A stretch of 64,000 nucleotides of DNA from a phage. The notes under the pieces are model-generated. The model did not search any database. It had not been told where the DNA came from and was given only the letters and a program-made list of their open reading frames with translations. Both the position numbers and the translations under genes were made by a program. Of the stretch, positions 29,675-51,125 are shown in pieces. Numbering within the stretch: the stretch's first letter is position 1; each line of letters opens with the position of its first letter. The stretch lies in assembly GCA_037431425.1 (NCBI GenBank), contig GCA_037431425.1_4129.1. One strand, written 5' to 3'.

Positions 29675-29866
29675 ATGTTGATTTATCAATGTGACGGTAT
29701 TCGTGTTCTACAACATCCTTATCTTCAAATCTTTCATGTTCAGATGTTTATGGAAGGTGATAATCCGAGAACTTATGAACGCACATATGATTATTTCACG
29801 GTCAAAGAGTGCGACAACATCGATGAAGTACGACGATTAGTACATGAACTCCAAAACAAAGGTTGA
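29675..29866 (+). CDS. hypothetical protein, 63 aa
   Basis: stop TGA lies inside cassette -35. Confidence 0.6.
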   Translation: MLIYQCDGIRVLQHPYLQIFHVQMFMEGDNPRTYERTYDYFTVKECDNIDEVRRLVHELQNKG

Positions 29867-29892
29867 CTTCGGTCAGCCTTTTTTGTTATAAT
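29861..29892 (+). promoter_or_regulatory. terminator-promoter cassette copy 1
   Basis: GGTTGAC-TTCG-GTCAGCC hairpin plus T6; TTGACT in the stem acts as -35, TATAAT 18 nt downstream. Confidence 0.75.
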
Positions 29893-29920
29893 TATTTTAT
29901 ATTCTAATGGAGTTTAAATT

Positions 29921-30361
29921 ATGTTAGTATATCGTTTTGAACTTAAATTTAGTTACATTGAACCTGATTTGAAACCAGCAACAAATGTTGGTCCATTTGC
30001 ACGGTATTCTTCAAAATATAGTACTAAAAATGGTTTTGACCGTTTGTATATGTCTACGCCTACGCAGTTCCAACCTGAACCAACTGATGATGGGATCTAT
30101 TCAATCAAATATGGATGGGCATTTGGCTGTCAAAGTTTGAATGATTTGTTTCGGTTCTTTACTATGGACTTGGGTAAATTACATCGTGCTGGGTTTGCTA
30201 TTTCCGTATATGACGTACCTGATAATCACGTTGATATTGGACGAAACCAGGTTCAGTTCCATTATAGGAGTGCAACTTTGGTTCGTATTATGTCTATTAA
30301 GGAAGCAAAGGATGAGTACCGCCATAGTAAAAGAATAATACATGAGGCTGTATATGGATAA
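29921..30361 (+). CDS. hypothetical protein, 146 aa
   Basis: GGAG SD. Confidence 0.75.
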   Translation: MLVYRFELKFSYIEPDLKPATNVGPFARYSSKYSTKNGFDRLYMSTPTQFQPEPTDDGIYSIKYGWAFGCQSLNDLFRFFTMDLGKLHRAGFAISVYDVPDNHVDIGRNQVQFHYRSATLVRIMSIKEAKDEYRHSKRIIHEAVYG

Positions 30362-30698
30362 GACTCAAATAGAATTAAAAAAATTTGTATCGTTCTATCT
30401 ACCAAATGATCCACGTAATTCACAAAAAGATTTTGAATATTATAATATCCTAAGTAAACAGTTAATGAGAAAGTTTCAACAGTGTTTAAGTATATTCAAT
30501 ACTGATGGTAGACGTAGATACCGAATCATTTCAATGAATGATGAAAACGCAAACTACTTTGATTATGATGTTGTTTTTAGAGCATATAATGATGACCGAA
30601 TTAAATTAAATTATGATCAAATAATATTTGATCTAAGTGCTATATCTGTTATAATTACTCACATCGCCGAGATTAATGGTTTTAAAGAGTGGTATTGA
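30354..30698 (+). CDS. hypothetical protein, 114 aa
   Basis: trimmed to ATG 30354, which overlaps the upstream stop (ATGGATAA). Confidence 0.65.
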   Translation: MDKTQIELKKFVSFYLPNDPRNSQKDFEYYNILSKQLMRKFQQCLSIFNTDGRRRYRIISMNDENANYFDYDVVFRAYNDDRIKLNYDQIIFDLSAISVIITHIAEINGFKEWY

Positions 30699-30712
30699 AT
30701 AGAGGACAATAT

Positions 30713-30979
30713 ATGAAGCTTAAATTGCAATATAATGGATTTACTTTACGTAATGATACTGAGTTTGTCAATCGTTCACCTGGTGCTGAACTTTTTTTGC
30801 GAGAGATGAACATTCCTTTCATCATCACTACTGTAGGAGATCGTGAAGTTTTACAATACGCAGAGCATCCTATTATTGATGTTCCTTGGTACTCTGAACA
30901 TATGTACATGGATATGGCACGTCGCTACAACTGTAAGTTCATAGTAGAAGGTGATAAAATTACAGTACAATTTAAATGA
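30713..30979 (+). CDS. hypothetical protein, 88 aa
   Basis: trimmed to ATG 30713 with AGAGGA SD. Confidence 0.65.
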   Translation: MKLKLQYNGFTLRNDTEFVNRSPGAELFLREMNIPFIITTVGDREVLQYAEHPIIDVPWYSEHMYMDMARRYNCKFIVEGDKITVQFK

Positions 30980-31046
30980 TGTGAATTGAAATGATCATTT
31001 AAGCATCATTGTAAATGTAGAAATGGTGTACATGAAGTATAATATA

Positions 31047-31080
31047 AAAAGGGAAATCATATATGGTTTCCCCTTTTTCT
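31047..31080 (+). terminator. rho-independent terminator
   Basis: AAAGGGAAA..TTTCCCCTTT plus T-run. Confidence 0.75.
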
Positions 31081-31120
31081 TATTACGTACAATTAAGGAC
31101 ATATATTAATTGAGGAAATT

Positions 31121-31693
31121 ATGAATCGTAAAGGTCGTTTTAAGGTATCAAAGAAGAACAAAAGTTCTAGATTTAAGCCTATAGTTTTAACCGTTAAAGC
31201 CAAAGCGGAATTAACTGCACTTAGTAAAAAGATCATTTCATCTAAGATTAAAGTATCATACGTAAATTCGGTAAAATATCGAAAGGTTAAACCACAAGAC
31301 CTACTCATTTCACTTATATTTGAACGTAATGATTTTGAGATATCAGTGGATGATTATAGAGCCTATAATGCTGGTTTCATTAATGTTACTTGTACTACAG
31401 AACTAACTGAATTAGAACATTTGTCATGTATAGTAAATCTCGATAAAGGTGTAGTGAAATACCACTTTGTACATTTTACTAATATTAATGATGGAAAGGG
31501 TGTACAATCCAGAACTATAGTACCTACATGTGATGTGACTAAATTATCAAAGCTCAATGACGAAGAATATTTTCAAGAAAGTACTGTAACTGAATATATA
31601 GATGAAATTATAGCAACTTACAAAGAATGTATATGGGTTTTAAATGCAATGAAGCCTAAATTATGTTTGATGAATATTGTACGTGATTTATGA
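31121..31693 (+). CDS. long-form EE-x-FQ-x-ST family protein, 190 aa
   Basis: basic N-terminus; motif NDEEYFQESTV. Confidence 0.75.
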   Translation: MNRKGRFKVSKKNKSSRFKPIVLTVKAKAELTALSKKIISSKIKVSYVNSVKYRKVKPQDLLISLIFERNDFEISVDDYRAYNAGFINVTCTTELTELEHLSCIVNLDKGVVKYHFVHFTNINDGKGVQSRTIVPTCDVTKLSKLNDEEYFQESTVTEYIDEIIATYKECIWVLNAMKPKLCLMNIVRDL

Positions 31694-31706
31694 ATAAGGA
31701 ATTGAA

Positions 31707-32150
31707 ATGTGTTGGGTAAATGTAAACAGTATTGAGCTTAATGAAAAAGATATTTTTGCATTTGTAAATTTAACAAATAATACAGTTCTAAAAGGTCGAT
31801 TGTTCAGTTCCAGCACTGGTGAAAAATGGATTTCATTGATGAATGATTGTGGTGAGATTTATAATGTGATGTCGTTACCACAATGGGTCTATAGTAACAC
31901 TGCGGATGATGTTCTTGCAGCAGTTATGCGTGAGTTTGAAAAACTTCCCGGTGGTGATATCAAAAACAAAGTTTTTAATGCCGAGCGTAAAAATTATACA
32001 GCACAGCAATTAGAATCACTCGCTATTGCTGCATATCAAGCTGCTATTAAGAAGCCAGAATGTGTTATTCTTAAGTATATTCCAGACTTAAAACTCACAT
32101 TGGAAGATATGGATGCATTCATTTTTACATCTGAACTTGAACAGTACTGA
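31707..32150 (+). CDS. hypothetical protein, 147 aa
   Basis: AAGGA SD. Confidence 0.75.
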   Translation: MCWVNVNSIELNEKDIFAFVNLTNNTVLKGRLFSSSTGEKWISLMNDCGEIYNVMSLPQWVYSNTADDVLAAVMREFEKLPGGDIKNKVFNAERKNYTAQQLESLAIAAYQAAIKKPECVILKYIPDLKLTLEDMDAFIFTSELEQY

Positions 32151-32263
32151 TTTAACTTTGGGACAAACCTTCCTATAATGATATAATTTTTTTGTCAGTT
32201 TATTTAAATGACATATGAAATATAAATATTATTGTAAAGTTTATCTCTTATAGGAGTTATAAA

Positions 32264-32647
32264 ATGGTTGATAAATGGAATAAGAAAGAACCATCTCATG
32301 ATGTGGATATTTCTGACCTAGATAATGAACATAAACACAAGTACCTAGATTCACTAGGACTACTAAAGCCGGACCAAAGTATTGCACATGATCGTCCTTC
32401 ACGTGAAAAAGCATTCAGTCTGGAATCTCTAGGTCATGAGCTAAATCGTGTGTTTGAAGAACACCCAATCTATGTACGTGATATTATTGAGAAACTTAAA
32501 GTAACTCCTAAAGAGCACTTTAAAGCAACTGTACACTCTGCATTCAATGCATTACATGAAGCACTTAAGAAAACTCACAACCTTCGTAAGATTCATGATG
32601 ATATTGTAAATGCAATTGAAAGTGAAAAGCATAAGTTCAAAAAGTAA
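32264..32647 (+). CDS. charged helical protein, 127 aa
   Basis: AGGAG SD; shares YLDSLGLL and VPKE modules with 32736 gene. Confidence 0.75.
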   Translation: MVDKWNKKEPSHDVDISDLDNEHKHKYLDSLGLLKPDQSIAHDRPSREKAFSLESLGHELNRVFEEHPIYVRDIIEKLKVTPKEHFKATVHSAFNALHEALKKTHNLRKIHDDIVNAIESEKHKFKK

Positions 32648-32654
32648 TAGAAAG

Positions 32655-32698
32655 GGTTGACTTCGGTCAGCCTTTTTTTATATACTATAAATATAATC
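32655..32698 (+). promoter_or_regulatory. terminator-promoter cassette copy 2
   Basis: GGTTGAC-TTCG-GTCAGCC plus T7; TATACT/TATAAT downstream. Confidence 0.7.
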
Positions 32699-32735
32699 AT
32701 AGAGAAAAAACATGAAATCTATGGAGAGAAATCAA

Positions 32736-33983
32736 ATGCCAAGTAATTTTACTGATAAAAATGGTGGTAACATGGCAGGTCACTCGGATAAATGGAGTGA
32801 ACGCAACCGCCGCCCAAATAGTTACCAAGCAGGCCAAGGTTCCCGTGGCTCCAGAAACCAAGGAACGGGACTTGCTGGCAAGGCAAACGCAGAAGCAGGT
32901 GAAGTTAAGAGTACTGAGAACATGACTGAGCTAGAAAAGCTACGTTATGTTAATTCATTAGGACTTCTTAATGCTACACAAAAACAACGTCTAGCTGATA
33001 TGGAACGCGAAGAAAAAGAAAAAACAACTACTAAAGAAGAATCAAAACAGGAAGCACCGAAGCCGTCTAACCCTGTCAAAGAACTGTCTGATAAGTTAGG
33101 TAAGATCTTTGCAAATAAACCCCAACTTATTCAAGGTATTGTCAAAGAATTACAATCTGTACCTAAAGAAGAATTAAAAGTCAAAGCACAAGCTGTTCTG
33201 GATGCAATGAAAGGAAATACCAGTACTGAACCAACTGAAGTGTTCAGTACTATTATGCGTGCACTGGAAGGTAAACAACAAGGTGAAGAACGTGGTGATG
33301 AAGTAAGTCTTGAACGTATTCTTAAAACATTTGATAGTATTGGGAAAGAAGATCGTGTTAATGCACAACAGGTTAAAAATGTTCTAGCAAAATTGGAAAA
33401 CCGTCTAGAAGGTAAAGATGATAAGATTAAATTGGTATCTGATGTAGTTGACAATGCACTTAAATCTTATGTACAAGGTGAAAAGAGTCGTTTTGTGACC
33501 GCGATGGATGCAGCATTCAATACTATGAAAAAGTACGAAGCTGACCATGGTGAGAAGGTTACACCTGATGGTTATCTGATGCGTGATGATGAAGAAGGTG
33601 CAGTAGAACAGAATGATGTTCATTCTGACGAAGATATTGATGACATGGAAGCTGAACTGTCACAAGATCGCCAAATGACTGAAAAATCACACAACGAACT
33701 AAAGAAATTAATGCAGTGGGTCGCTGATGTTGGAGAAAAAGCGGGTGCTGATAAGAAAAGTATAAACCGAAATCTTAGTTGGATTAAAGATAAAGTAGGT
33801 AACAACGCTCGCAAACTACAAAAAGCATGGACTGATGTAGTGAATGGTGCAGTAGATATTGACGTTGAATCTGGTGAAGCATATGATTATGCATTGACTA
33901 CACTTGATGATTCTTTTCGTGACTACGAAAAAGGAAACGTGACTCCTTGGGAAAAGGACATAATGAGCAAATACGGCAAATGA
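32736..33983 (+). CDS. large charged, low-complexity protein, about 415 aa
   Basis: GGAGA SD favours ATG 32736 over the track start 32712; paralogous modules with 32264. Confidence 0.75.
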   Translation: MPSNFTDKNGGNMAGHSDKWSERNRRPNSYQAGQGSRGSRNQGTGLAGKANAEAGEVKSTENMTELEKLRYVNSLGLLNATQKQRLADMEREEKEKTTTKEESKQEAPKPSNPVKELSDKLGKIFANKPQLIQGIVKELQSVPKEELKVKAQAVLDAMKGNTSTEPTEVFSTIMRALEGKQQGEERGDEVSLERILKTFDSIGKEDRVNAQQVKNVLAKLENRLEGKDDKIKLVSDVVDNALKSYVQGEKSRFVTAMDAAFNTMKKYEADHGEKVTPDGYLMRDDEEGAVEQNDVHSDEDIDDMEAELSQDRQMTEKSHNELKKLMQWVADVGEKAGADKKSINRNLSWIKDKVGNNARKLQKAWTDVVNGAVDIDVESGEAYDYALTTLDDSFRDYEKGNVTPWEKDIMSKYGK

Positions 33984-33992
33984 TAACAAAAA

Positions 33993-34024
33993 GGTTGACT
34001 TCGGTCAGCCTTTTTTGTTATGAT
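33993..34024 (+). promoter_or_regulatory. terminator-promoter cassette copy 3
   Basis: GGTTGAC-TTCG-GTCAGCC plus T6; -10 TATGAT. Confidence 0.7.
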
Positions 34025-34052
34025 AGTGCTATCCACTATTGAGGCCAGAGAG

Positions 34053-34694
34053 ATGACAAAGCAAGAAATATTCAAAACTTTAATTGACATATTACGTCCA
34101 TCTAAATTACGGTGTGCAATGGAGTTTGATATTCCTTATGCTGAACAGGTAATCTTTCCACAAGTGAAATCGGCAGGACTTACGTTACTTGGTATGGGAA
34201 TGTACTCTGTAGTAGTTGAACATAAAAACTATCCAGGTCGTGCATTTAAAGTAACCACGTCACGATGGGATGGTTTTCGTGCTTATGCAAAGTACTGCAT
34301 TGAAAACGCAGGAACTAAATTTCTTCCTGTTATATACAGTGCAAATGAGCAAGGAAACTTCGGCTGGTATGAGATGGATAAGTATTACCCTATAATTAAA
34401 CAAAAAAATAATTACGATGATTTTGTGAGTACTAAAATTGGTGATTTATATTCGTATGCACATGCTGGACAATATGCTTCATCAATATCTAATATGCGTG
34501 GTAGTCCAGAAGAAATTGCTATTGCAACAGTTGTTGCGAACATAATGAAAGAGTTTCATGGTCGTTTTGTACCAGACATTCATTCCAGAAATGTAATGAT
34601 GGACAAAGATGGTAACGTATATATCACAGATCCTATTTCATGTGATGTACGGAGAGAAATACCAATCACACAAGAAGACCCAGTTTTTTATTGA
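34053..34694 (+). CDS. protein-kinase-like (PKL fold) protein, 213 aa
   Basis: GMGMYSVV (Gly loop), RAFKV (AxK), PDIHSRNVMMDKDGNVYITDP (HxD/N catalytic loop plus metal-binding D); start moved off the cassette -10. Confidence 0.6.
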   Translation: MTKQEIFKTLIDILRPSKLRCAMEFDIPYAEQVIFPQVKSAGLTLLGMGMYSVVVEHKNYPGRAFKVTTSRWDGFRAYAKYCIENAGTKFLPVIYSANEQGNFGWYEMDKYYPIIKQKNNYDDFVSTKIGDLYSYAHAGQYASSISNMRGSPEEIAIATVVANIMKEFHGRFVPDIHSRNVMMDKDGNVYITDPISCDVRREIPITQEDPVFY

Positions 34695-34719
34695 CAGAAC
34701 TTTAATACTGTTATATTAT
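34691..34719 (+). promoter_or_regulatory. possible promoter TTGACA..TATATT
   Basis: -35 overlaps upstream stop; spacer 15-17 depending on -10 choice. Confidence 0.4.
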
Positions 34720-34757
34720 TTAAAAATGATAAACGAATTGCATCTAAGGGTAAAATC

Positions 34758-35039
34758 ATGCGTTCATTTGAAAACTTAATCGGAAAAAACCGTTTAGCAG
34801 AAATTGAAGCAGATGTAAAAGAATTGTCACAATCAAAAAGTTATATCCACTTAGATGAACTTTTTATTAAGTACGGTGAAATTGGATTTAAGACACTATT
34901 TGTTTTTACTTTGAAAGTACACAGTTTAAAGTACTTCGATTTAAGTTATAAAAATGGTCAACCGAATCTATATCATATGTATTATCTCAAGAATATAGAA
35001 GAAGCTCATTCCTTATTTTCTGAATATCTGAAGGTATAA
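34758..35039 (+). CDS. hypothetical protein, 93 aa
   Basis: AAGGG SD. Confidence 0.7.
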   Translation: MRSFENLIGKNRLAEIEADVKELSQSKSYIHLDELFIKYGEIGFKTLFVFTLKVHSLKYFDLSYKNGQPNLYHMYYLKNIEEAHSLFSEYLKV

Positions 35040-35040
35040 A

Positions 35041-35379
35041 ATGGAACAATATTTTGAATTAATTAATAAAGTGTCATTCTATGTAGTGTCATTGACGTGG
35101 GTTTATTTCATGTTTTGCTACATTATTGCATTCTTCCGATATACTACTTTATATGAACGTATCTATTATGATGCACCAATTTCATTCTTGGTGTTCTGTG
35201 CATGTACGTGGGGAATATTAGAAGTACTGATATGTGGATATAGAACTGATGAATTAAATCTGGTATCGGTATTGACTGGGTTATCACTTGGTGTTATGAT
35301 ATCTTTCTTTCCAGTATGGTTGTTCTTTGAACTGATCCATCGCATTGATGTATGGCGTTCTAATATCCCTGAAAAATAA
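35041..35379 (+). CDS. small polytopic membrane protein family, 112 aa
   Basis: 3 TM; C-terminal RSNIPEK tail shared with paralogues. Confidence 0.75.
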   Translation: MEQYFELINKVSFYVVSLTWVYFMFCYIIAFFRYTTLYERIYYDAPISFLVFCACTWGILEVLICGYRTDELNLVSVLTGLSLGVMISFFPVWLFFELIHRIDVWRSNIPEK

Positions 35380-35388
35380 GGATTGATA

Positions 35389-35730
35389 ATGATTTTCTAT
35401 ACTAATGCGTTTGCTTATGCTATTGCATCAATCTACATTGTGTACTTCTTATTTGGTGGAGTACTGTACTTCTTTAAGTACAAAACATTGTTTAACCGAA
35501 TGTATCCAAATCACCCAATTGTAGTAGTACTTTTGATAATTTCTGTTGCTCATATCATTGTAGAAACAATAATGGGTATCAGTGCAGTACATTACAGTCT
35601 AGGTACTATTGTAATTATTACTATGATCATAGCATACATTTTAGTAATGGGTTCTGGTTTATTTGGGAATGTAGCAATGAAAATGTATAATCGAATCAAA
35701 ACATTACGTGATAATCTACCGGAGCGTTGA
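35389..35730 (+). CDS. small polytopic membrane protein family, 113 aa
   Basis: ATG 35389 with AAGGA SD (track used TTG 35383); tail RDNLPER. Confidence 0.75.
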   Translation: MIFYTNAFAYAIASIYIVYFLFGGVLYFFKYKTLFNRMYPNHPIVVVLLIISVAHIIVETIMGISAVHYSLGTIVIITMIIAYILVMGSGLFGNVAMKMYNRIKTLRDNLPER

Positions 35731-35731
35731 G

Positions 35732-36076
35732 TTGTATAATTTAAATTTAATATCATATATCATAACAACAATGTTTACTTTCTATGCCTTTGTTGGTATA
35801 ATCCTACTGTACTTTAAATTTTATAAAGTCTTTGACCGTTTATTTCCATCATTGGAACATGAATTCTTAGTGGTGATGTACATATGTTTAACGTGTATGT
35901 CTACATTTTTCACTGTATTTGATGGTATCATCGGTATTAAAGCTGAAGATCCAAATGGAAGTACACTTGTTGCCTTTATCCTGGTAGGATTCTTCGGCAC
36001 TTATATCACTTTCATTTCAACATGGTCTGTGGTTGATTATCTCATTAGATTACGAGATAAAATGCCAAATCGATAG
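35732..36076 (+). CDS. small polytopic membrane protein family, about 114 aa
   Basis: start uncertain (TTG 35732 after GGAG, or GTG 35708); tail RDKMPNR. Confidence 0.65.
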   Translation: MYNLNLISYIITTMFTFYAFVGIILLYFKFYKVFDRLFPSLEHEFLVVMYICLTCMSTFFTVFDGIIGIKAEDPNGSTLVAFILVGFFGTYITFISTWSVVDYLIRLRDKMPNR

Positions 36077-36085
36077 GGGATTGCT

Positions 36086-36343
36086 ATGTTTGCATTGCGT
36101 AATAAAAATACAAAAGAGATTCTATGTATCTCAGCAGTATGGGATTGTGCAGGAAGTGAAATGATCCTCGAAGAAGGTTCAGGTGATTGTGTTTATGTTG
36201 TTCAGGATCGTCGTGAACTTGAATCATTACTTGATGAATTTAATGCTGGTGGTAATCCTAAAAGTACTGAATTCCCTGTGATTATTAATCCAGCACCACC
36301 TGGTTCTTATGAAATTCTACAACTGTGGGAGATGGATAAGTAA
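36086..36343 (+). CDS. hypothetical protein, 85 aa
   Basis: paralogue of 38215 (MFALRNK/MYALYNK; ..LESLLDEF/..LQRLLEN). Confidence 0.7.
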   Translation: MFALRNKNTKEILCISAVWDCAGSEMILEEGSGDCVYVVQDRRELESLLDEFNAGGNPKSTEFPVIINPAPPGSYEILQLWEMDK

Positions 36344-36723
36344 TGCGTCAAATGTACAAAGTAACCGAGCTAAACAAGCGTCTGATTAAACAATCAATGT
36401 TCGAGGACAAAGAGTCTTATTATAACTTTAAACGTGCTGTAGAGGCTGCTATCCATATCCAGAAGCTTAAAGATAGTGGTTGTATTATTCTCGAAAATGG
36501 TTCTGATGTTGTAACGGATGACTTTAGTGTAGCGTTTGATGTTTCACCAGATGGTATACTATCAATGCCACGATTAGGAACTGGAAACATGACTGTTTGG
36601 GTCGGCTTCACTATGGGTAATGTACCAGACACGGTGTATGTAGATGATATTGAGTTGAAAGAAAGCTTCAAAAACTTATCTTATCTTGAACCACAATACG
36701 CACATGAAATGAATTTATTTTGA
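36343..36723 (+). CDS. hypothetical protein, 126 aa
   Basis: TAATG coupling. Confidence 0.75.
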   Translation: MRQMYKVTELNKRLIKQSMFEDKESYYNFKRAVEAAIHIQKLKDSGCIILENGSDVVTDDFSVAFDVSPDGILSMPRLGTGNMTVWVGFTMGNVPDTVYVDDIELKESFKNLSYLEPQYAHEMNLF

Positions 36724-36724
36724 G

Positions 36725-36752
36725 TTGACAAACAGATTTAGTACTGTATAAT
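36725..36752 (+). promoter_or_regulatory. promoter TTGACA-N16-TATAAT with AGTACT in spacer
   Basis: read directly; leader hairpin GGGATG..CATCCC. Confidence 0.7.
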
Positions 36753-36799
36753 GTTTACCAACGGGATGAATTTCCCATCCCTACTATCGAGGAATTACC

Positions 36800-37354
36800 A
36801 TGATTACTTTTAAGAAAACAGCTAACCATATCCATGAAATTTACATTAACGGTCATAAAGCTGGGCTTCTTCGCTTACTGGCACATCATCCTAATGTAGA
36901 CGTATCTGATAATGAACCTAAAGATTGGCGTGTCTTTTTCTTTGGAAAGTACAGTGATTTTCAAGTATCAAATCTGAAGAAGATTCGTTCAGTATGCACG
37001 TTAACTGAAATTAAAGAAAAGTTAGCAGAAGCACTGAAAACCAATCCAGATGGAATCCTTCCTCCTGATAACTTTGTAGATAAAGGTTATGCTTTAGCTC
37101 ATTTCAAAGATGGTACTATTCAATCTATTAGTACTGAATATGAATATCAATGGACTGAGTACTTCACTTATGGCTCACCTAATACATTGATGGCTTCACG
37201 TAGTAAATTGGAAGAAGTACTGACACGTATTAATGAACGCGAGCGTCAGTTCTATGACAAACCAGAAATGTGGAGTTCAACTCACATTGACCGTATTGAC
37301 TATGTTATTATGACTCCAATCTTTAACACTGCTTACTATGATTCTTTGAAATAA
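36800..37354 (+). CDS. hypothetical protein, 184 aa
   Basis: GAGGA SD. Confidence 0.8.
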   Translation: MITFKKTANHIHEIYINGHKAGLLRLLAHHPNVDVSDNEPKDWRVFFFGKYSDFQVSNLKKIRSVCTLTEIKEKLAEALKTNPDGILPPDNFVDKGYALAHFKDGTIQSISTEYEYQWTEYFTYGSPNTLMASRSKLEEVLTRINERERQFYDKPEMWSSTHIDRIDYVIMTPIFNTAYYDSLK

Positions 37355-37365
37355 GGATAACTTAT

Positions 37366-37542
37366 ATGAAACTACGTACTCGTAATCGCCTGATGGATGC
37401 ACTGTACCATGAACAGTATTCATTAAATGAAGTAAAGAGACAGTTAATGTATACATATCAGTTACCTGCCCGTGCTGCGAAACAACGTGCTAAAGAATTA
37501 CTGAAAGAAGCTATCGAGTACTGGGAGTCTGATTCGTATTAA
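37366..37542 (+). CDS. small basic helical protein, 58 aa
   Basis: hand-translated MKLRTRNRLMDALYHEQ...; AAGGA SD; below track cut-off. Confidence 0.55.
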   Translation: MKLRTRNRLMDALYHEQYSLNEVKRQLMYTYQLPARAAKQRAKELLKEAIEYWESDSY

Positions 37543-37581
37543 TATTACGTGATATGTCACATTAATTAAGTGAGACGATAA

Positions 37582-37833
37582 ATGAAAATTTTATTAGTTC
37601 TAATACTACTAATTGTTTTACCATTTACTTTAGTATCTCCTGAACTTGCATGGAATGTGTTTGTGTACTTGGTATGTACTATTGCGGTAAATGGTATCTT
37701 GTTCTTAGTTCTATTCATAAATGGAATAGGACACGGTGGTGGATGGACCAGTACTGCTAATATTGTACATAAAACCACTATGTCTTTATTTGTAGTGTGG
37801 AATTTATTCTGGACTTGGTTTGTGTTCTTCTAA
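37582..37833 (+). CDS. membrane protein, 83 aa
   Basis: 3 hydrophobic helices. Confidence 0.7.
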   Translation: MKILLVLILLIVLPFTLVSPELAWNVFVYLVCTIAVNGILFLVLFINGIGHGGGWTSTANIVHKTTMSLFVVWNLFWTWFVFF

Positions 37834-37841
37834 TTAAAAAT

Positions 37842-38213
37842 ATGAATATAGATTTGAAAGGTTCAACACGAACTGTTATCCTTATTGGTGATTATGCTAT
37901 TAAGATTCCAACCTTTAAAAGTTGGAAGTTATTCCTAACTGGAATGATAGCGAACCTCAATGAACGTTCATGGATGCAGTACTCCAATCGTAGTGATAGT
38001 GGAATATCCCCTACGCTGTGGTCCTCTCGTACTGGTTTAATAACAATACAGAAACGTTGTAAACCTGTACAACATAGGGGTTTATTTTGGGTTGAGTTGT
38101 GTGCGTTGGCATCAAAATCAGAGTTGAATACTGACTTCTTCTATTCAGATGCGAAGCCAGAAAACTTTGGGTATCTGTGTGGTAAGTTGGTTAAACTTGA
38201 TTATGGAGATTAA
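37842..38213 (+). CDS. minimal protein-kinase-like protein, 123 aa
   Basis: YAIKIP (VAIK-like), SDAKPENFG (catalytic-loop-like), KLDYG (DFG-like); unusually short. Confidence 0.5.
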   Translation: MNIDLKGSTRTVILIGDYAIKIPTFKSWKLFLTGMIANLNERSWMQYSNRSDSGISPTLWSSRTGLITIQKRCKPVQHRGLFWVELCALASKSELNTDFFYSDAKPENFGYLCGKLVKLDYGD

Positions 38214-38214
38214 T

Positions 38215-38484
38215 ATGTACGCATTGTATAATAAAGAAAAGAAACGATTTGCTAAGGTTGAAATTTCGATTGATACATTTGACATGTTGGAGTACTGTAT
38301 TGTAACGGATTTATATGCTAACTTGTATTACGTTCTTGATGACGTATCAGTACTGCAACGATTGCTTGAGAATTCCAAAAGTCAATGCCAGGGCATCTAT
38401 GATGGTTCATCTTATGAAACACCTGAGTGTTCCTACGGCTATCTGGACGGGTATGAGATTGTGAAGTTGGGGATTGTTGAATAA
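38215..38484 (+). CDS. hypothetical protein, 89 aa
   Basis: trimmed to ATG 38215 with GGAGA SD. Confidence 0.65.
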   Translation: MYALYNKEKKRFAKVEISIDTFDMLEYCIVTDLYANLYYVLDDVSVLQRLLENSKSQCQGIYDGSSYETPECSYGYLDGYEIVKLGIVE

Positions 38485-38496
38485 ATGGATTAAACA

Positions 38497-38910
38497 ATGA
38501 AGAAGTGTATCACGTGTAATATTGAAAAAGACATTAGTGAATTTGGTATAAGAAAAGATACTGGGAAACATAGAAATACATGCAAAGGTTGTAGTAATAT
38601 TACCAGTAAGAAAACCAGAAATAAAAAAACTGATGTCAAAAAACTTGAAGAAATCAAAAGAAAAAATAAAGATTTCATGTCCAGAGTTAAATCATTTTAT
38701 GGTTGTAGTATTTGTATGATGAAGTATCCAGAATGTTTAGACTTTCATCATCTTGATCCGAATATCAAAGAACATACACCAAGTTCTATGTTCAGTAAAA
38801 GTCGAGATGCTATCAAAGATGAAATTCGAAAGTGTATGATTCTTTGTTCTAATCATCATCGCATGGTCCATTCTGGAAGACTATGCTTAATTGAAAGAAA
38901 AAAGGGTTGA
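38497..38910 (+). CDS. HNH homing-type endonuclease, 137 aa
   Basis: CxxC..CxxC zinc motifs; CLDFHHLDP...LCSNHHRMVH. Confidence 0.75.
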   Translation: MKKCITCNIEKDISEFGIRKDTGKHRNTCKGCSNITSKKTRNKKTDVKKLEEIKRKNKDFMSRVKSFYGCSICMMKYPECLDFHHLDPNIKEHTPSSMFSKSRDAIKDEIRKCMILCSNHHRMVHSGRLCLIERKKG

Positions 38911-38936
38911 CTTCTGTCAGCCCTTTTTGCTATAAT
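38904..38936 (+). promoter_or_regulatory. terminator-promoter cassette copy 4
   Basis: GGGTTGAC-TTCT-GTCAGCCC plus T-run; TATAAT 18 nt after -35. Confidence 0.75.
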
Positions 38937-38966
38937 CATTTCATCGAAGCTTGAGGATATTAAAAA

Positions 38967-39449
38967 ATGAACTACTTAGATTTGATTAACTCATATGTAA
39001 TTAGCCCATATATTAACGATGAAAGTATTAAATGTGTAGTATCAGTTGAGGATCACCCAACTGGTGCATTAAAACTATTTGGTGCAGGTCAAATTAACAA
39101 CCGCAACGGGTATACATTTGAATATTTACCATCAAGTGATAAGTTTGGATGTTATGACCACGAAACAAATAAGGGATATATTTGGGGAACACACTTAAGT
39201 ATTGCACAATCTTCGCTTTTCGAAGACCATAATGGGTATATGTGGCGATATTTAGGTGCAGTACTGCTTGATATCGCCCGTAGGTATAAGAAGTGTATAA
39301 CATTAACTTATACTCATACAAATGAATATAAAAACGAAGTTCAAGTTATTGATGAGGATTTTTTTAAAAATATTCCTTATATTGATTTTAACTGTCAAAA
39401 TGGTTATGCTACATACCCAGCAAGTTTTGAAGGTGAAAGATACTTTTAA
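38967..39449 (+). CDS. hypothetical protein, 160 aa
   Basis: GAGGA SD. Confidence 0.75.
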   Translation: MNYLDLINSYVISPYINDESIKCVVSVEDHPTGALKLFGAGQINNRNGYTFEYLPSSDKFGCYDHETNKGYIWGTHLSIAQSSLFEDHNGYMWRYLGAVLLDIARRYKKCITLTYTHTNEYKNEVQVIDEDFFKNIPYIDFNCQNGYATYPASFEGERYF

Positions 39450-39455
39450 AAAGAG

Positions 39456-39483
39456 TTGATTTAAAATGTATAAGTGATATACT
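39456..39483 (+). promoter_or_regulatory. possible promoter TTGATT-N16-TATACT
   Basis: read directly. Confidence 0.4.
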
Positions 39484-39541
39484 TATCATATCAAGACGAA
39501 ACAACAACCAACATGTAAACGCTACTAATTAGGAGACACAC

Positions 39542-39952
39542 ATGATCAACAAACATTTCGCAGTTTCCAAAACTGTAACCATCGATAATGAATGGGAAAT
39601 TACCATTCTAAATGATACGGCTCGTGGACTACTGGCAGAGAATATTCTCCAGAAGTATATTGACTGTGAATCTGAGTTGATCATTCATGAACGCACTAAA
39701 TTTCTTCTAATTGGTGGAAAGAAATGTAAAGTTCTGGTATTCACCGACAAAATGACTCGTGCAGATATCATTACTAAATTGGTTAGTTCTTCACGTCATC
39801 GTCCGGGTGTTAATAGATCAATTGATGAGATTAAAGAAATGAAGCCAGGTGATTTATTCATTGTTGCAGGGTTTGATTCAAAAACAAGAAAAATGAGTAT
39901 TTCAGAAATGTATACTAATGCTGAAATGCGTAACAAATTCTTTTCTAACTAA
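39542..39952 (+). CDS. hypothetical protein, 136 aa
   Basis: AGGAG SD. Confidence 0.75.
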   Translation: MINKHFAVSKTVTIDNEWEITILNDTARGLLAENILQKYIDCESELIIHERTKFLLIGGKKCKVLVFTDKMTRADIITKLVSSSRHRPGVNRSIDEIKEMKPGDLFIVAGFDSKTRKMSISEMYTNAEMRNKFFSN

Positions 39953-39987
39953 TCAACCCATGTAGTGTAATCTTATACACATTTTAG

Positions 39988-41205
39988 ATGGATAAAAATA
40001 TGATCTTCGAAACTGAAAAAACATTACTTGAAACTTACACTTTGGATAATCTAGTTAAACTTAACCTTGAACGACCAGATATCCAACGCAATTGGCAATG
40101 GAAAAATAATAACCAAAACAATCTTATTATTTCCATTCTAAAGAATTCTCCAATTGGTCAATTTTTAGTATGGAATGAAACTAGTTCAAATACGATGTAC
40201 ATCACTGATGGTCGTCATCGCTATACAGTAATTTCAAACTTCATGAACAATAAATTCCCAGTCACTGTTAGAACTGAAGATGGGACTAAGGATTATTATT
40301 ATGGTTCTGATGATCCAGTAGAAGAAGAAAGCATTTCACTGAAACTTGGTGGAAAGCGTAAAACATGGGATTTTTTATCTAAAGAAGAGCGTGATGCTTT
40401 TCGTGCAAAGGAAGTATCAGTAACATTCGTTCATACAGACGATGCTGAAAAGATTTCAGATATGTTTATTGCAATTAATACTGCATCATCTAATCTATGT
40501 AAAGTTGATTTGTTAGTATGTAAGCACCACACAAATACATATATGAAACGTATTGATAAGCTATTTTCAATTGAGTTTGGCAAAGATGAACCCATGGCAG
40601 CATTAGTGAGTGATTTTTACCGTGCAATCGGTCATTGTTGTGTTAATGGTAATCATGAGAAACACTTATCGAAGCTTAAAGCTAACCCTAAAGTACAGAA
40701 GCGTGAATTTTTTGAAATGTTCTTTATGGTCAAAGCGTTCGCGAAATTATGTGCTAGTGCACTAGATGGTAAGCTAAACTCATACCGTATGCCAAAGATG
40801 AACCAACAAATTGAAGAAGCAATTATTAGTACTGAATCTCTTAGTGAGAAACATGCTGATGCTGATTTTGTTCAGTTTGTTAATGCAGTTCGTGAGATGA
40901 ATTTGGTATCACCTGTAAAATCTGCACAAAAATTTCAATTTATCCATGAAGATATGAAGAATACCTTTAATAAGAGACTCTTTTGTATTTTGATGGGATT
41001 GTTTTATGCTTATGGTACAAGATTGCCATTACATTTTCGTGATGTATGGGGTGACATTTATAATGAAATGTCAGAAAAAAGTTCAGAACTACCTACTAAT
41101 GGAACCGATAGTCCTTCCGCAATTTTAGCTGGCATTGAAATGATTGAACCATACTTTAGTTCAGCATTTAATAATATTCCATTGAGTGCTTACGTGGGAA
41201 AGTGA
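39988..41205 (+). CDS. DUF262 / ParB-like nuclease superfamily protein (GmrS-like), 405 aa
   Basis: N-terminal DIQRNWQW...ITDGRHRYTVIS matches the DUF262 (F/Y)QRxYxW ... DGQQR signature. Confidence 0.65.
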   Translation: MDKNMIFETEKTLLETYTLDNLVKLNLERPDIQRNWQWKNNNQNNLIISILKNSPIGQFLVWNETSSNTMYITDGRHRYTVISNFMNNKFPVTVRTEDGTKDYYYGSDDPVEEESISLKLGGKRKTWDFLSKEERDAFRAKEVSVTFVHTDDAEKISDMFIAINTASSNLCKVDLLVCKHHTNTYMKRIDKLFSIEFGKDEPMAALVSDFYRAIGHCCVNGNHEKHLSKLKANPKVQKREFFEMFFMVKAFAKLCASALDGKLNSYRMPKMNQQIEEAIISTESLSEKHADADFVQFVNAVREMNLVSPVKSAQKFQFIHEDMKNTFNKRLFCILMGLFYAYGTRLPLHFRDVWGDIYNEMSEKSSELPTNGTDSPSAILAGIEMIEPYFSSAFNNIPLSAYVGK

Positions 41206-41414
41206 AAAAACGTGGTGTACTAAATACACCACAAAAACAATATCTTTTGAAAAGATATTCTTTGTGTTATCTTTGTGGACAGAAGATATCGGATTCAGAT
41301 ATACTACATTTTGACCATGTTCAATCATTAAAAGATGGTGGTAGTAATGAATTAAGTAATATACGACCAACGCACTCCATTTGTAATTTACGTAAAGGTG
41401 CTAAGAGTATGTAA
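41202..41414 (+). CDS. small HNH endonuclease (GmrD-like partner), 70 aa
   Basis: GTGA overlap with DUF262 stop; HFDHVQSLKDGGSNELSNIRPTHSICNLRKG is a classic H-N-H. Confidence 0.7.
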   Translation: MKKRGVLNTPQKQYLLKRYSLCYLCGQKISDSDILHFDHVQSLKDGGSNELSNIRPTHSICNLRKGAKSM

Positions 41415-41463
41415 AGCTAATACTCCCCAAAGATGGGGAGTATATATAATTAAAGGGATTTAT

Positions 41464-42300
41464 ATGAGTATTAAAAATAAATTAGATCAGTATTATACAA
41501 ATCCAGAGTATGCTAAAAAATGTTATACTAAATCATTAGAGTTTATTTCGTCTCGAATGGACATTAATTCATCTTATTATATGGAGCCTTGTGTTGGGAC
41601 TGGTTCGTTTTATCTACAGTTTCCTGAATCCCGTCGATTTGGGTGTGACATTGATCCGGTACATCTTGATGAAAATGTTATCCATTCCGATTTTTTACTT
41701 GAATTTGGTATCAATGCAAGAAGTAAAGGTGAACCAATACTTGTTATAAGTAATCCACCTTTTGGGAAAATTTCTTCTTTAGCCATTAAGTTTTTTAATA
41801 AATGTGCATCAATGCCTGAAGTGAAATATATTTGTTTTATTGTCCCTATGACATTTCGAAAAGCAGCAACACAAAATAAACTCAATGAGATGTTTCACCT
41901 GGTATTAGATGAAGATTCACCAAATGACGCTTTTATACTGCACGGAGAACCACATCATGTACCATGCGTATTTCAGATATGGGAACGTAGGGATACAGTT
42001 CGTGAGAAACATGAGATTAAGAACAAATCAGACTATTTCGACTATTGTACTAAGGAAGAGGCTGATGTTTTTATAAAACGTGTAGGAACCAAAGCAGGTG
42101 AGTATGCCGAGCCAGGGAAAGAACACAAAGATGCAAGTATGTACTACATTAAAACTAAGTATGTTGATGAAATCATTAAGGTTTTGAAAAGTAAAGATTA
42201 CCTTGATGAGATAAAACGTATACGTAAAACCACAGCAGGGGTATACTGTGTGTCCAAATCTGAAATCGTTCTTAATATTGAAAAACGTTTGAATCTTTGA
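41464..42300 (+). CDS. DNA methyltransferase, NPPF (N6-A or N4-C) gamma-type, 278 aa
   Basis: motif I EPCVGTGSF, then motif IV SNPPFGK; start moved to ATG 41464 after hairpin ACTCCCC..GGGGAGT and AAGGGA SD. Confidence 0.75.
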   Translation: MSIKNKLDQYYTNPEYAKKCYTKSLEFISSRMDINSSYYMEPCVGTGSFYLQFPESRRFGCDIDPVHLDENVIHSDFLLEFGINARSKGEPILVISNPPFGKISSLAIKFFNKCASMPEVKYICFIVPMTFRKAATQNKLNEMFHLVLDEDSPNDAFILHGEPHHVPCVFQIWERRDTVREKHEIKNKSDYFDYCTKEEADVFIKRVGTKAGEYAEPGKEHKDASMYYIKTKYVDEIIKVLKSKDYLDEIKRIRKTTAGVYCVSKSEIVLNIEKRLNL

Positions 42301-42308
42301 AAATTATA

Positions 42309-42340
42309 GGTTGACTTCGGTCAGCCTTTATTGTTATAAT
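42309..42340 (+). promoter_or_regulatory. terminator-promoter cassette copy 5
   Basis: GGTTGAC-TTCG-GTCAGCC; TATAAT 18 nt after -35. Confidence 0.75.
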
Positions 42341-42368
42341 CATTTTATATAACCAAGAGGATGATTAC

Positions 42369-42872
42369 ATGACACGCATTAATTTAGTACACGTTAAAGA
42401 ACTTGCTGACCAACATTTGATGGCTGAATATCGTGAACTTCCACGGGTGTTCGGTGCTGTACAAAAACACGTTCAAGCACGTAAGCGTGTCCGTGATTTT
42501 AAAATTAACAGTACTTATCTGTTAGGTTCAGGCCATGTGACATTCTTCTACGACAAGTTACTGTACTTACAAAAGCGTCATGTTGAGATTGTTAACGAAT
42601 GTTTGCGTCGTGGTATGAAGATTCAAAACACGGAAGTAAACGACATCAGCGGCTTCCCTGATGAGTTTTGTAATGACTACGTACCATCGGAGTCAGAGAT
42701 TAAAATGTCTCGTGACCGTTTGATTGAGAAGCTCCAGATGAAGCCTAAGTGGTATAAGTTTACTGCTGTTGAAATTCCACAGTACGTTAAAGATATGCAG
42801 AACGTAAAATCTAGTACTGATATGTTCGAAGAAATTGAAGAGCAAATCAAAGATGAAATGAATAATTATTAA
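42369..42872 (+). CDS. denV: pyrimidine-dimer DNA glycosylase (T4 endonuclease V family), 167 aa
   Basis: [41 protein letters not shown] is near-identical in pattern to T4 EndoV; C-terminal extension of about 30 aa. Confidence 0.9.
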
Positions 42873-42878
42873 AGGTAA

Positions 42879-42911
42879 GGGTTGACTTCGGTCAACCCTT
42901 TTTGCTATAAT
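42879..42911 (+). promoter_or_regulatory. terminator-promoter cassette copy 6
   Basis: GGGTTGAC-TTCG-GTCAACCC plus T-run; TATAAT 18 nt after -35. Confidence 0.75.
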
Positions 42912-43775: not shown

Positions 43776-44117
43776 ATGCTTGAGTTTTTTAATTCAAATA
43801 CAATGCTTGGTATTACTTTAATTTACATGTTTGTATTTTTGTTTTATCATTCAATTGTAATTAGTCTGTGGTATTTTAAAAGGAAAGTTGTTTTTAAATT
43901 GTATTCGTATGATAATGTATTCTTAGTTGTATATAGTATTGTACAAGGTGGGTTTATTTTATTTGGTATTATGACTTATTTCATTTATCGATTGGAAATT
44001 GATAATACACCACACATTACACAATATGTTGTGTTTTCGGGACTAATCGTGTGGTTGTTGACATGTGTCGTGTACTTTATTATTAAAGCTCGTGACAAAA
44101 TTAAAGGGGAATTCTAA
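43776..44117 (+). CDS. small polytopic membrane protein family, 113 aa
   Basis: GGAGA SD; 3 TM; tail RDKIKGEF. Confidence 0.75.
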   Translation: MLEFFNSNTMLGITLIYMFVFLFYHSIVISLWYFKRKVVFKLYSYDNVFLVVYSIVQGGFILFGIMTYFIYRLEIDNTPHITQYVVFSGLIVWLLTCVVYFIIKARDKIKGEF

Positions 44118-44455
44118 TGTTAACATTTTTTCAGTCAGATACAATGATTAGTATTACGTTGATTTATCTGTTTGGATTTTTCTTTTATCATGCACTAGTT
44201 GTAGTACTATGGTATTTTAAAAAGAATATAGTTTTCAAACTGTATCCTAAAGGAAACGTTTCATTACTTCTTTTCACTATTATCCAAGGTATCTTTGCAA
44301 TTTTTGGTATTACTGCACATTTAATTTATTGTGCTAATCCACATTTGAACTCAATATCACAATACATTGTATTTTTTGGATTACTAATTTGGGTACTAAT
44401 ATACGTAACTAATCTCATCATTAATGGTAGAGCTAAAATTCACGGGGACTTTTAA
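44117..44455 (+). CDS. small polytopic membrane protein family, 112 aa
   Basis: TAATG coupling; close paralogue of 43776. Confidence 0.75.
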   Translation: MLTFFQSDTMISITLIYLFGFFFYHALVVVLWYFKKNIVFKLYPKGNVSLLLFTIIQGIFAIFGITAHLIYCANPHLNSISQYIVFFGLLIWVLIYVTNLIINGRAKIHGDF

Positions 44456-45819: not shown

Positions 45820-45820
45820 T

Positions 45821-48436: not shown

Positions 48437-48478
48437 AATTTCTCTCCCTCATTCATTATACTGTATTTAACCCAATTA
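48437..48478 (-). promoter_or_regulatory. conserved leader/promoter box of RCC1-like genes
   Basis: minus strand reads ..AAATACAGTATAATGAATGAGGGAGAGAAATTATG. Confidence 0.5.
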
Positions 48479-48480
48479 AG

Positions 48481-48503
48481 AAAAGCCAGTATCAAGTACT
48501 GGT
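48481..48503 (-). terminator. rho-independent terminator
   Basis: minus strand ACCAGTACTTGATACTGGC plus TTTT. Confidence 0.7.
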
Positions 48504-48509
48504 ATTTTA

Positions 48510-49925: not shown

Positions 49926-49931
49926 ATTATT

Positions 49932-51124: not shown

Positions 51125-51125
51125 G

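Follow-up and report, generated by a model that had tools for sequence, protein, structure and literature searches.

Promoter early stem-loops (PeSLs) are composite cassettes in which a sigma-70 promoter is combined with a stem-loop; their upstream sequence is AT-rich, they are concentrated in hyperplastic regions, they lie next to indels between sister phages and they are associated with mini-circle formation (PMC2839356; PMC4122927). The stem-loop falls into five positional subclasses, one of which overlaps the -35 box. In the phages RB49 and phi1, terminator activity, promoter activity (with strong lacZ expression) and mini-circles were shown by experiment, and PeSL-bounded segments form mini-circles that are encapsidated (PMC2839356). 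We analyzed a 64,000-nucleotide (nt) stretch of phage DNA (GenBank assembly GCA_037431425.1, contig GCA_037431425.1_4129.1; the window hereafter), in which six copies of a short cassette combine a terminator-like hairpin with a sigma-70-like promoter. In sequence comparison the closest record is Escherichia phage ph0011 of the genus Asteriusvirus, to which the window region is 98% identical. Asteriusviruses are Rak2-like jumbo phages of ~350 kb, outside the Straboviridae. We consider it probable that the cassettes are PeSL-type terminator-promoter units in the early hyperplastic region of Asteriusvirus and that gene blocks are exchanged there by recombination between cassettes. This reading is based on the observed anatomy, predicted folding energy, pairing-preserving variation and clustering of the copies, and on breakpoints and hybrid copies in relatives.

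Searching the window for GGTTGACTTCGGTCARCC with up to two mismatches gave six sites, all on the + strand (29861, 32655, 33993, 38905, 42309, and 42880). The expected count is 0, as no match was found in any of 100 dinucleotide-preserving shuffles. All six copies lie within 13 kb and none in the remaining 51 kb, and a looser search of the whole 64 kb found nothing comparable beyond them. The initial annotation had listed the same six copies; its starts at 38904 and 42879 include the optional leading G of the copies at 38905 and 42880. The parts follow the same order in every cassette: an upstream stop codon, an A-tract, GG or GGG, TTGAC, a 4-base loop, GTCAG (GTCAA at 42880), CC or CCC, a T-run, a -10 box, a GAGG-type Shine-Dalgarno (SD) sequence, and ATG. 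The intergenic gaps that hold the cassettes are 54-69 nt long, and the upstream stop codon is located 0-10 nt before the hairpin or within it. An A-tract of 3-7 A stands immediately 5' of GG(G) in the copies of the window, and the consensus of 51 copies shows it too. The 3' arm is GTCAGCC with a U-G wobble in five copies and GTCAACC at 42880, and the T-runs consist of five to seven T. The TTCG loop, which had been ascribed to all copies, is present in five, the copy at 38905 having TTCT. Similarly, the expected spacing of exactly 18 nt between TTGACT and the -10 box holds for six of six, but the box itself is an exact TATAAT only in four (TATACT at 32681 and TATGAT at 34019). An extended -10 (TGn directly before the box) is found in five of the six cassettes, and a GAGG-type SD and an ATG 27-33 nt past the -10 box accompany every one. 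The six copies are the following.

Cassette 1, 29855..29892, + strand: A-tract and hairpin 29858-29881; -35 TTGACT 29863-29868; T-run; TGT and -10 TATAAT 29887-29892; next ATG 29921; -13.4 kcal/mol, z -4.9.
Cassette 2, 32649..32686, + strand: hairpin 32650-32677; -35 32657-32662; T-run; -10 TATACT 32681-32686 without TG; next ATG 32712; -15.4 kcal/mol.
Cassette 3, 33988..34024, + strand: hairpin 33988-34015; -35 33995-34000; T-run; TGT and -10 TATGAT 34019-34024; kinase ATG 34053; -15.2 kcal/mol.
Cassette 4, 38899..38936, + strand: extended hairpin of 13 bp with TTCT loop; -35 38907-38912; T-run; TGC and -10 TATAAT 38931-38936; next ATG 38967; -18.8 kcal/mol.
Cassette 5, 42308..42340, + strand: hairpin 42308-42327; -35 42311-42316; interrupted T-run TTTATTG; TGT and -10 TATAAT 42335-42340; denV ATG 42369; -11.6 kcal/mol, the weakest of the six.
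Cassette 6, 42877..42911, + strand: hairpin 42877-42900, 3' arm GTCAACC (U-A replaces U-G); -35 42882-42887; T-run; TGC and -10 TATAAT 42906-42911; ATPase ATG 42940; -15.7 kcal/mol.

When the + strand RNA of the six cassettes was folded, the energies ranged from -11.6 to -18.8 kcal/mol with z of -4.7 to -6.7, and 0 of 200 shuffles per copy folded as well. The hairpins comprise 7-13 bp and contain the -35 box within the 5' arm. On the transcript the GC-rich hairpin is immediately followed by a U-run, which is interrupted in cassette 5. Orthologous hairpins are independently labeled terminators in the GenBank records of G17 and UE-S1, the former citing ARNold with -13.5 to -17 kcal/mol. No Rfam family overlaps any of the cassettes. 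The proposal of the initial annotation that hairpin and T-run form an intrinsic terminator is supported at the sequence level by these fold energies, the T-runs, the annotation of G17 and UE-S1, and variation that preserves pairing.

The last point was evaluated by counting pairs in 39 distinct copies, which were collected from the window, ten Asteriusvirus loci, and one Vibrio phage by mismatch-tolerant searches (4 and 2 mismatches). A standard pair was present in 95.5% of the cells. Our first tally of variation had been made with a pattern in which TTGAC and GTC[AG][AG] were required, so that invariance in those columns was circular; in the 39-copy set the core columns were also chosen by the search itself, and their invariance proves little. 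We relied mainly on the eighth pair, which is unbiased because it lies outside the search pattern. It was GC in 23 copies, AU in 11, and GU in 5, and was never unpaired. Pairs 3 and 4 varied only between U-G and U-A. In RaK2 the stem is constant and the loops are both UUCG and GAAA, which are classic stable RNA tetraloops.

Given its inverted-repeat core, the cassette might act at the DNA level and not as an RNA hairpin, for instance as an operator palindrome bound by a dimeric protein or as a recombination site that forms a cruciform. DNA-binding palindromes matter in this phage, as its genome contains the palindrome CAGTACTG far more often than expected. However, a T-G wobble is present in 34 of the 39 distinct copies. 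Such a wobble pairs in RNA, is a mismatch in DNA and turns into C-A on the other strand, which argues for a strand-specific RNA hairpin and not a DNA palindrome. The minus-strand fold of one wobble-containing copy was weaker (-8.7 vs -13.4 kcal/mol), the loops vary among stable RNA tetraloops, and all copies are gene-oriented, each with a T-run after it. It is thus extremely improbable that the cassette is a DNA-level element. The wobble might conceivably weaken a mirror-image -35 on the minus strand (CTGAC for TTGAC) or make cruciforms or slippage during replication less likely.

The promoter half showed a comparable constancy. In the mismatch-tolerant search the -35 hexamer, whose last base is the first T of the loop, was constant in all copies except for one TTGATT in RaK2. 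The copies in relatives align with the window copies without gaps, and in RaK2 the spacing between -35 and -10 is 17 nt. Four matches in the region had 11 of the 12 consensus positions plus TG, and all four were cassettes. The claim that TTGACT in the 5' arm doubles as a -35 thus gains support at the sequence level from the fixed 18-nt spacing to a near-consensus -10. The A-tract and GGG of the cassettes may also resemble the proximal UP-element consensus, reported as AAAAAARNR (Estrem et al. 1999). If they act as an UP element, one set of bases would combine the roles of terminator A-tract, stem clamp, and contact for the alpha subunit.

Alternatively, the cassettes may be terminators only, with TTGACT and the TATAAT-like boxes being incidental in an AT-rich genome or inactive. 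Sequences that match the promoter consensus in at least 9 of its 12 positions were indeed no commoner in the region than in shuffles (113 vs 110 expected), the -10 is poor in some orthologous copies, and the GenBank annotators marked only terminators at these sites. This explanation has difficulty in accounting for the -35 hexamer that is constant bar one, the spacing fixed at 18 nt in all six copies and kept in the gap-free relatives, with 17 nt in RaK2, the TGn in five of the six, the SD and ATG ~27-33 nt downstream of every copy, and the restriction of the best promoter matches to cassettes. Moreover, the equivalent PeSLs of RB49 and phi1 drove strong lacZ expression (PMC2839356). It is therefore quite improbable that the cassettes lack a promoter function.

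The + strand of the first 46 kb contains ~30 near-consensus sigma-70 promoters besides the cassettes. The related jumbo phage PA5oct, which depends on the host polymerase, shows TTGAC/TATAATA promoters where its transcription start sites were mapped (PMC7318152). In CBB, a Rak2-like phage, RpoD-like promoters were predicted in the early region; the same paper predicted 74 terminators and does not mention composite cassettes or PeSLs (PMC5259590). Since the early region is rich in sigma-70 promoters and related phages use the host polymerase, the six cassettes are likely to be a hairpin-fused subclass of early promoters.

Based on this anatomy, we suppose that the cassettes would work as follows. 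The A-tract, the GC-clamped hairpin of 7-8 bp (usually with C(UUCG)G) and the U-run would form an intrinsic terminator, which would end the transcript of the upstream block. As DNA, the 5' arm of the hairpin would provide a sigma-70 -35 (TTGACT) paired with a -10 eighteen bases on, which in most cases is extended by TGn. Transcription by the host RNA polymerase would restart ~7 nt beyond the -10 on a short leader with its own SD. With a terminator and a restart at each cassette, each gene block between cassettes would be an insulated transcription unit. The cassettes are also near-identical direct repeats of ~45-55 nt, whose recombination would delete or insert the bracketed blocks and leave one hybrid cassette, and breakage at the hairpin would produce half cassettes. 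Actual termination, actual initiation, the use of host sigma-70, and the recombination pathway are what we infer from the observed features.

The genes and modules that border the cassettes are listed below.

29675..29866, + strand: 63-amino acid (aa) gene upstream of cassette 1; full-length phrog_6957 match, E 5e-32; its TGA stop is the TGA in the -35 of cassette 1.
32712..33983, + strand: virion structural protein, a single-gene module between cassettes 2 and 3; phrog_20398, E 2.8e-176; a structural protein in the ph0011 annotation.
38497..38910, + strand: HNH endonuclease gene (137 aa); phrog_2255, E 1.9e-31; its TGA stop lies inside TTGACT in the hairpin of cassette 4.
38967..42300, + strand: four-gene module between cassettes 4 and 5, encoding 160 aa, 136 aa, DUF262/GmrSD_N (405 aa), and DNA methyltransferase (300 aa).
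42369..42872, + strand: denV, pyrimidine-dimer glycosylase, a single-gene module between cassettes 5 and 6; Pfam Pyr_excise, E 1.8e-15.

As the initial annotation had noticed, the TGA of TTGACT serves as the stop codon of two upstream genes, namely the open reading frame (ORF) 29675-29866 and the HNH gene. Its account of the flanked genes needs partial revision. It placed denV between cassettes correctly, whereas the HNH gene, which it described as flanked, immediately precedes cassette 4 and does not stand between two copies. Cassettes 4 and 5 bracket four genes, DUF262 and the methyltransferase together with the 160-aa and 136-aa genes. For the ATPase, a cassette is present upstream but not downstream. 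Among the ORFs near the cassettes, Pfam matched only GmrSD_N and Pyr_excise, and the HNH assignment came from PHROGs; the variable endonuclease-like genes of relatives were also mostly without a Pfam match and were matched by PHROGs.

We compared the locus with its relatives. The ~40 other Asteriusvirus genomes (121Q, PBECO4, G17, phAPEC6, etc.) are 86-90% identical with a coverage of only 53-75%, which indicates that the cassette region is hyperplastic. In ten Asteriusvirus loci, the orthologous ~20 kb contain 5-8 cassette copies each, and whole-genome blastn found 7-12 places per genome, mostly in this block. The 348-kb genome of ph0011 has 7-8 such places, six of them in this block, and 121Q has 10; the orthologous 20 kb account for nine of these, eight of them intact and one a half copy. 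Local blastn of the window from 26.5 to 46.5 kb against the loci of nine relatives revealed that collinear blocks begin or end -25 to +62 nt from cassettes and that neighboring blocks overlap on the cassettes by ~40-55 nt. The initial annotation had proposed that its view would fail if related genomes had no recombination breakpoints at the cassettes; this synteny comparison gave the opposite result.

Four events illustrate the exchange. In event (a), cassette 2 corresponds to two cassettes around a 37-aa gene in 121Q, G17, JP4, and others. In event (b), cassette 3 corresponds to two cassettes around three genes in G17, JP4, and phAPEC6. Conversely, in event (c), cassettes 4 and 5 with the four-gene DUF262-methyltransferase module between them correspond to one cassette in JP4 and PBECO4. 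In event (d), cassette 6 corresponds to two cassettes around three genes in BF17. The single cassette in each of the four events is a hybrid, of which the left flank is that of the left copy and the right flank is that of the right copy, the switch lying within the shared cassette. These hybrids point to recombination between direct repeats or to the reverse process, namely the insertion of a one-cassette circle. The same topology of two flanking cassettes versus one hybrid was used to infer excision and insertion in RB49 and phi1 (PMC2839356). Approximately six of nine whole-gene indels occurred at the six of ~42 gene junctions that bear a cassette (P ~5e-4 by a rough post-hoc binomial estimate).

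Broken copies were also found. Directly after denV, 121Q, CRJP21, and G17 carry a half cassette, GGGTTGACTTCGGT, which is broken in the 3' arm of the hairpin and continues with tacac and then unrelated sequence, and UE-S1 and JP4 carry a 1-nt variant of GGGTTGACTTCGGT after denV. The half cassettes lie at 14486 in the 121Q locus (L003) and at 14488, 14519, 15871, and 12076 in the loci L004, L005, L006, and L002, where the window has the intact cassette 6. At the cassette 6 site, 121Q, G17, and others thus have a half cassette and an intact one. The degraded PeSLs in the paper on the Vibrio phages nt-1 and KVP40 are the same kind of object (PMC4122927).

The association of indels with cassettes may also be caused mainly by free-standing homing endonucleases, which would cut at or near a cassette and move neighboring genes through break repair. 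The HNH gene (phrog_2255) ends in cassette 4, and its presence or absence forms a breakpoint 9 nt from the cassette: in 121Q, G17, and PBECO4, where the gene is missing, 9 nt separate the end of the preceding gene from the cassette (breakpoint 38485). A homologous HNH gene also stands directly upstream of a cassette in the Cronobacter phage GAP32, its ORF reading through a degenerate cassette-like sequence. Just before the ATPase-side cassette, G17, CRJP21, 121Q, and phAPEC6 have variable genes assigned to HNH, homing-endonuclease, and endonuclease PHROGs (559, 9084, and 681), and the half cassettes broken in the hairpin look like products of imprecise repair. Since endonuclease genes stand directly upstream of cassettes, homing and break repair may explain some of the events, including the half cassettes. 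On the other hand, events (a) and (b) lack a recognizable endonuclease gene and left clean hybrids as repeat-mediated recombination predicts. It is therefore doubtful that homing is the main cause, although homing and recombination between cassettes are not mutually exclusive.

Several points weigh against the interpretation of the cassettes as terminator-promoter units that exchange blocks. The T-run of cassette 5 is interrupted, the 18-nt spacer is one above the optimum, and the -10 boxes of cassettes 2 and 3 are weaker. Some orthologous copies in relatives with a poor -10 (e.g., 121Q, L003 8325, ending in TTTTTTTGTAAATA) may be terminators only. The 39 distinct copies are related by descent, so that the counts of conserved features are not independent events, and both termination and initiation are deduced from consensus and analogy. 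Indels without a cassette exist in the same region (30997/31104, 37545/37839, 33634/33673, and 43988/44126), and the clustering of breakpoints could partly reflect that insertions are tolerated nowhere but at unit boundaries, or the endonuclease genes located there. The cassettes are thus a preferred site of change on the sequence comparison, but not the sole one.

One of these other indels lies at a terminator that is not a cassette. The 106-nt segment 30998-31103 is specific to the window and contains, at 31051-31072, an unrelated terminator-like hairpin, GGGAAATCATATATGGTTTCCC, with CTTTTTC; the segment stands in place of two genes in relatives (gp195-196 in 121Q).

The four-gene DUF262-methyltransferase module was found only in ph0011 among 41 related records. 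When the 3.3-kb module was searched by blastn against 50,697 phage records, it matched ph0011 only, apart from GAP32 with 70% identity over the methyltransferase. GAP32, which belongs to Mimasvirus, has the order HNH, cassette, small ORF, DUF262, methyltransferase, cassette, GAP32_520, and nrdC.10-like ATPase, and its cassettes were read directly in the sequence. The protein identities between the window and GAP32 are 48% for HNH, 22% for DUF262, 69% for the methyltransferase, and 51% for the ATPase. A recent horizontal origin of the module from a sequenced donor was rejected, as only ph0011 and the diverged GAP32 (22-69% protein identity) carry it. The depth of this divergence suggests an old arrangement that was lost in most Asteriusviruses by exchange between its two cassettes. 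To judge from these sequences, old residence with loss elsewhere would fit the module better than recent import.

The HNH protein annotated in GAP32 (GAP32_516, 259 aa, positions 2235-3014 of the locus L014) matches the window HNH only to nt 2633. Past this point, near 2650, the ORF runs through the degenerate cassette-like sequence GGTTGACTTGGGTCAGCCATTTTGCTATTGT. This suggests that GAP32_516 may be an HNH and cassette unit of which the terminator has decayed.

Beyond Asteriusvirus, a 36-45 nt query found the core in RaK2 (Alcyoneusvirus), K64-1, CBB, the GAP32 locus, Erwinia and Serratia jumbo phages, and Salmonella phage Munch as well as in Asteriusvirus itself. T4-type phages of Vibrio and Aeromonas carry it too, as do Pectobacterium, Cronobacter, and Enterobacter phages of ~150 kb. 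The T4-type Vibrio phage 1.081.O (Schizotequatrovirus) contains AAAGGGTTGACTTCGGTCAGCCCTTTT, a 27-mer identical to the Asteriusvirus consensus. In the nt-1 genome, the PeSL between ORF109 and ORF110 is AAAAAGGGTTGACAGATGTCAGCCCTTTTTTGTATCAT at 44.64 kb, and others are GGGTTGCTTCGGCAGCCC and GGGTTGCACTATGCAGCCC. Like the window cassettes, the nt-1 PeSLs consist of an A-tract, GGG, a -35 starting with TTG in the 5' arm, a loop, an arm CAG-CCC with a T-G wobble, a T-run, a -10, an SD, and a start codon, and in both the -10 box follows the -35 hexamer after 17-18 nt. Between phage groups, the cassettes are similar up to the -10 box but not in the leader beyond it.

How the near-identical core came to be present in unrelated phage groups can be explained by convergence under stacked constraints or by transfer of a mobile cassette. 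TTGAC in the 5' arm fixes the 3' arm, and its last C is in the closing pair of the C(UUCG)G tetraloop. The 17-18 nt spacer can accommodate no more than the loop, the arm, 2-3 nt of GC clamp, ~5 T, and TGn. The similarity between the window and 1.081.O ends at the -10, and nt-1 has several different stems with one layout. The non-obvious U-G wobble (CAGCCC) that is common to the groups is less readily explained in this way, and encapsidated mini-circles bounded by PeSLs could be a vehicle of transfer (PMC2839356). Because the similarity ends at the -10 and the design is heavily constrained, recent transfer between families is less likely than convergence or a very old common ancestry kept under constraint, and we lean toward convergence.

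A more far-reaching idea is that the cassette is a landing pad which moves gene modules across phage families: endonucleases would recognize it, and break repair or PeSL mini-circles would ferry modules such as DUF262 and the methyltransferase. This idea is based on the occurrence of the 26-27 nt core in Rak2-like jumbo phages of at least three sampled genera, in T4-type Vibrio and Aeromonas phages, and in ~150-kb phages, together with the HNH and homing genes upstream of cassettes and the stop codons in the hairpin. We regard it as unlikely.

Two other origins were rejected. A miniature repeat of the miniature inverted-repeat transposable element or repetitive extragenic palindrome type was excluded, as no duplication flanks the copies and E. 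coli genomes gave only weak single-copy matches. In 5,426 E. coli genomes no close match to the cassette was found (the best was 86% over 29 nt, E = 4), and a host origin was rejected on this ground.

At the sequence level, the cassettes share with PeSLs an early promoter with -35 and -10 boxes (18-nt spacer; ~17 in PeSLs), a stem-loop, an AT-rich upstream sequence, an intergenic position, multiple copies in a hyperplastic region, and adjacent indels. The RB49 and phi1 PeSLs are likewise sigma-70 promoters with a stem-loop between small early genes, with an AT-rich upstream sequence and a -35-overlap subclass; their activities are experimental, while the window cassettes are known from sequence alone (PMC2839356). 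As in nt-1 and KVP40 (PMC4122927), the copies are clustered in a hyperplastic region next to indels and include degraded half copies. The resemblance to PeSLs as mediators of modular shuffling, to which the initial annotation had drawn attention, is thus supported by the breakpoints, the hybrid cassettes, and the nt-1 layout. There are also differences. The window cassettes occur in a ~350-kb Rak2-like Asteriusvirus, outside the Straboviridae to which the PeSLs belong, although this taxonomic range is not a structural criterion. The Asteriusvirus family of copies is small (7-12 blastn places per genome) compared with the ~50 PeSLs per genome in RB49 and phi1 (PMC2839356). Its copies are far more uniform than the PeSLs of nt-1 and KVP40, and almost all of them lie within one block of ~15-20 kb.

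Two further systems are comparable in part. The cassette hairpins share a very stable UUCG loop, closed by C-G and located between phage genes, with the C(UUCG)G hairpins of T4 intercistronic regions, which Tuerk et al. (1988) reportedly described as elements of RNA stability or structure. Those hairpins are not known to have been described with a -35 in the stem or as substrates of recombination. The morons of lambdoid phages reportedly combine promoter, gene, and terminator as an autonomous unit (Juhala et al. 2000). Cassette modules resemble them in that accessory genes form self-contained transcription units between neighbors. The promoters and terminators of morons are separate and non-repeated, whereas a cassette is one repeated element that would end one unit, start the next, and provide the homology for exchange.

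Other repeats and gene arrays were observed in the window. The palindromic 8-mer CAGTACTG occurs in 43 copies against ~0.7 expected (maximum 4 in 100 shuffles). Many sigma-70-like promoters have it in their spacer, immediately ahead of the -10 (TTCAGTACTGTATAAT at 6844, 7253, 7633, 24139, 36725, and 61028), and half of it makes terminator stems. Its density is highest at 60564-63858, with fourteen copies in the final 3.4 kb of the window. CAGTACTG looks like a putative binding site of a regulator. Six tRNA genes (Ser-tga, Arg-tct, Ser-gct, Met-cat, Asn-gtt, and Thr-tgt) are located at 6153-9988 among promoters of the CAGTACTG type. The end of the window also contains an apparently non-coding, repeat-rich stretch: at 60341-60433 a 31-nt unit is repeated three times in tandem, and at 61458-61577 there is an array of ~15 units with a period of 8 nt (ACGGCTAA/ATGGCTAG). 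Promoter-like blocks GCGTATAATGTTTTACATCGAGAGCGGGA are repeated at 62320, 62780, and 63486. This repeat-rich part of the window may be an origin or a regulatory hub, as far as its sequence suggests.

The minus strand at 47291-55969 encodes a tandem array of seven paralogs (368-449 aa), each of which begins with MLPF; the three that were scanned matched phrog_4219, 'regulator of chromosome condensation' (RCC1-like). Most of them are preceded by a second type of composite cassette, which consists of a hairpin (GCCAGTACT-loop-AGTACTGGC), a T-run, a conserved block TTAAATATAGTATAATGAATAAAGGAGGG, and ATG. Its logic is that of the main cassettes, with a different stem and promoter-like box. Seven small genes of 104-122 aa are located at 43776-46183. 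The first is a full-length match to phrog_19454, and at least the first two (43776-44117 and 44117-44455) are paralogous and cross-align. The copy number in this run varies among relatives (breakpoints 43988/44126), and in the GAP32 annotation the genes downstream of its ATPase are membrane proteins with three transmembrane segments.

A literature search found no paper that applied the PeSL idea to Rak2-like phages and none that linked Asteriusvirus with promoters and terminators. The present finding is best filed as a report of PeSL-type cassettes in a phage group where they had not previously been described. PeSLs have been proposed as an engine of modular gene shuffling in T4-like phages, and in the literature found they are described only there. 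The nearly base-for-base identical cassette in Rak2-like jumbo phages suggests that the design may be of general use to large virulent phages which rely on the host RNA polymerase early in infection. The Asteriusvirus copies form a clean natural system, as they are few and near-identical and exist as one-cassette and two-cassette alleles across ~40 sequenced relatives, and with GAP32 as an outgroup the events can be polarized. The cassettes also mark points at which accessory genes of therapeutic jumbo phages might be swapped without disturbing the expression of their neighbors, and the swappable genes include anti-defense candidates such as the DUF262-methyltransferase pair.

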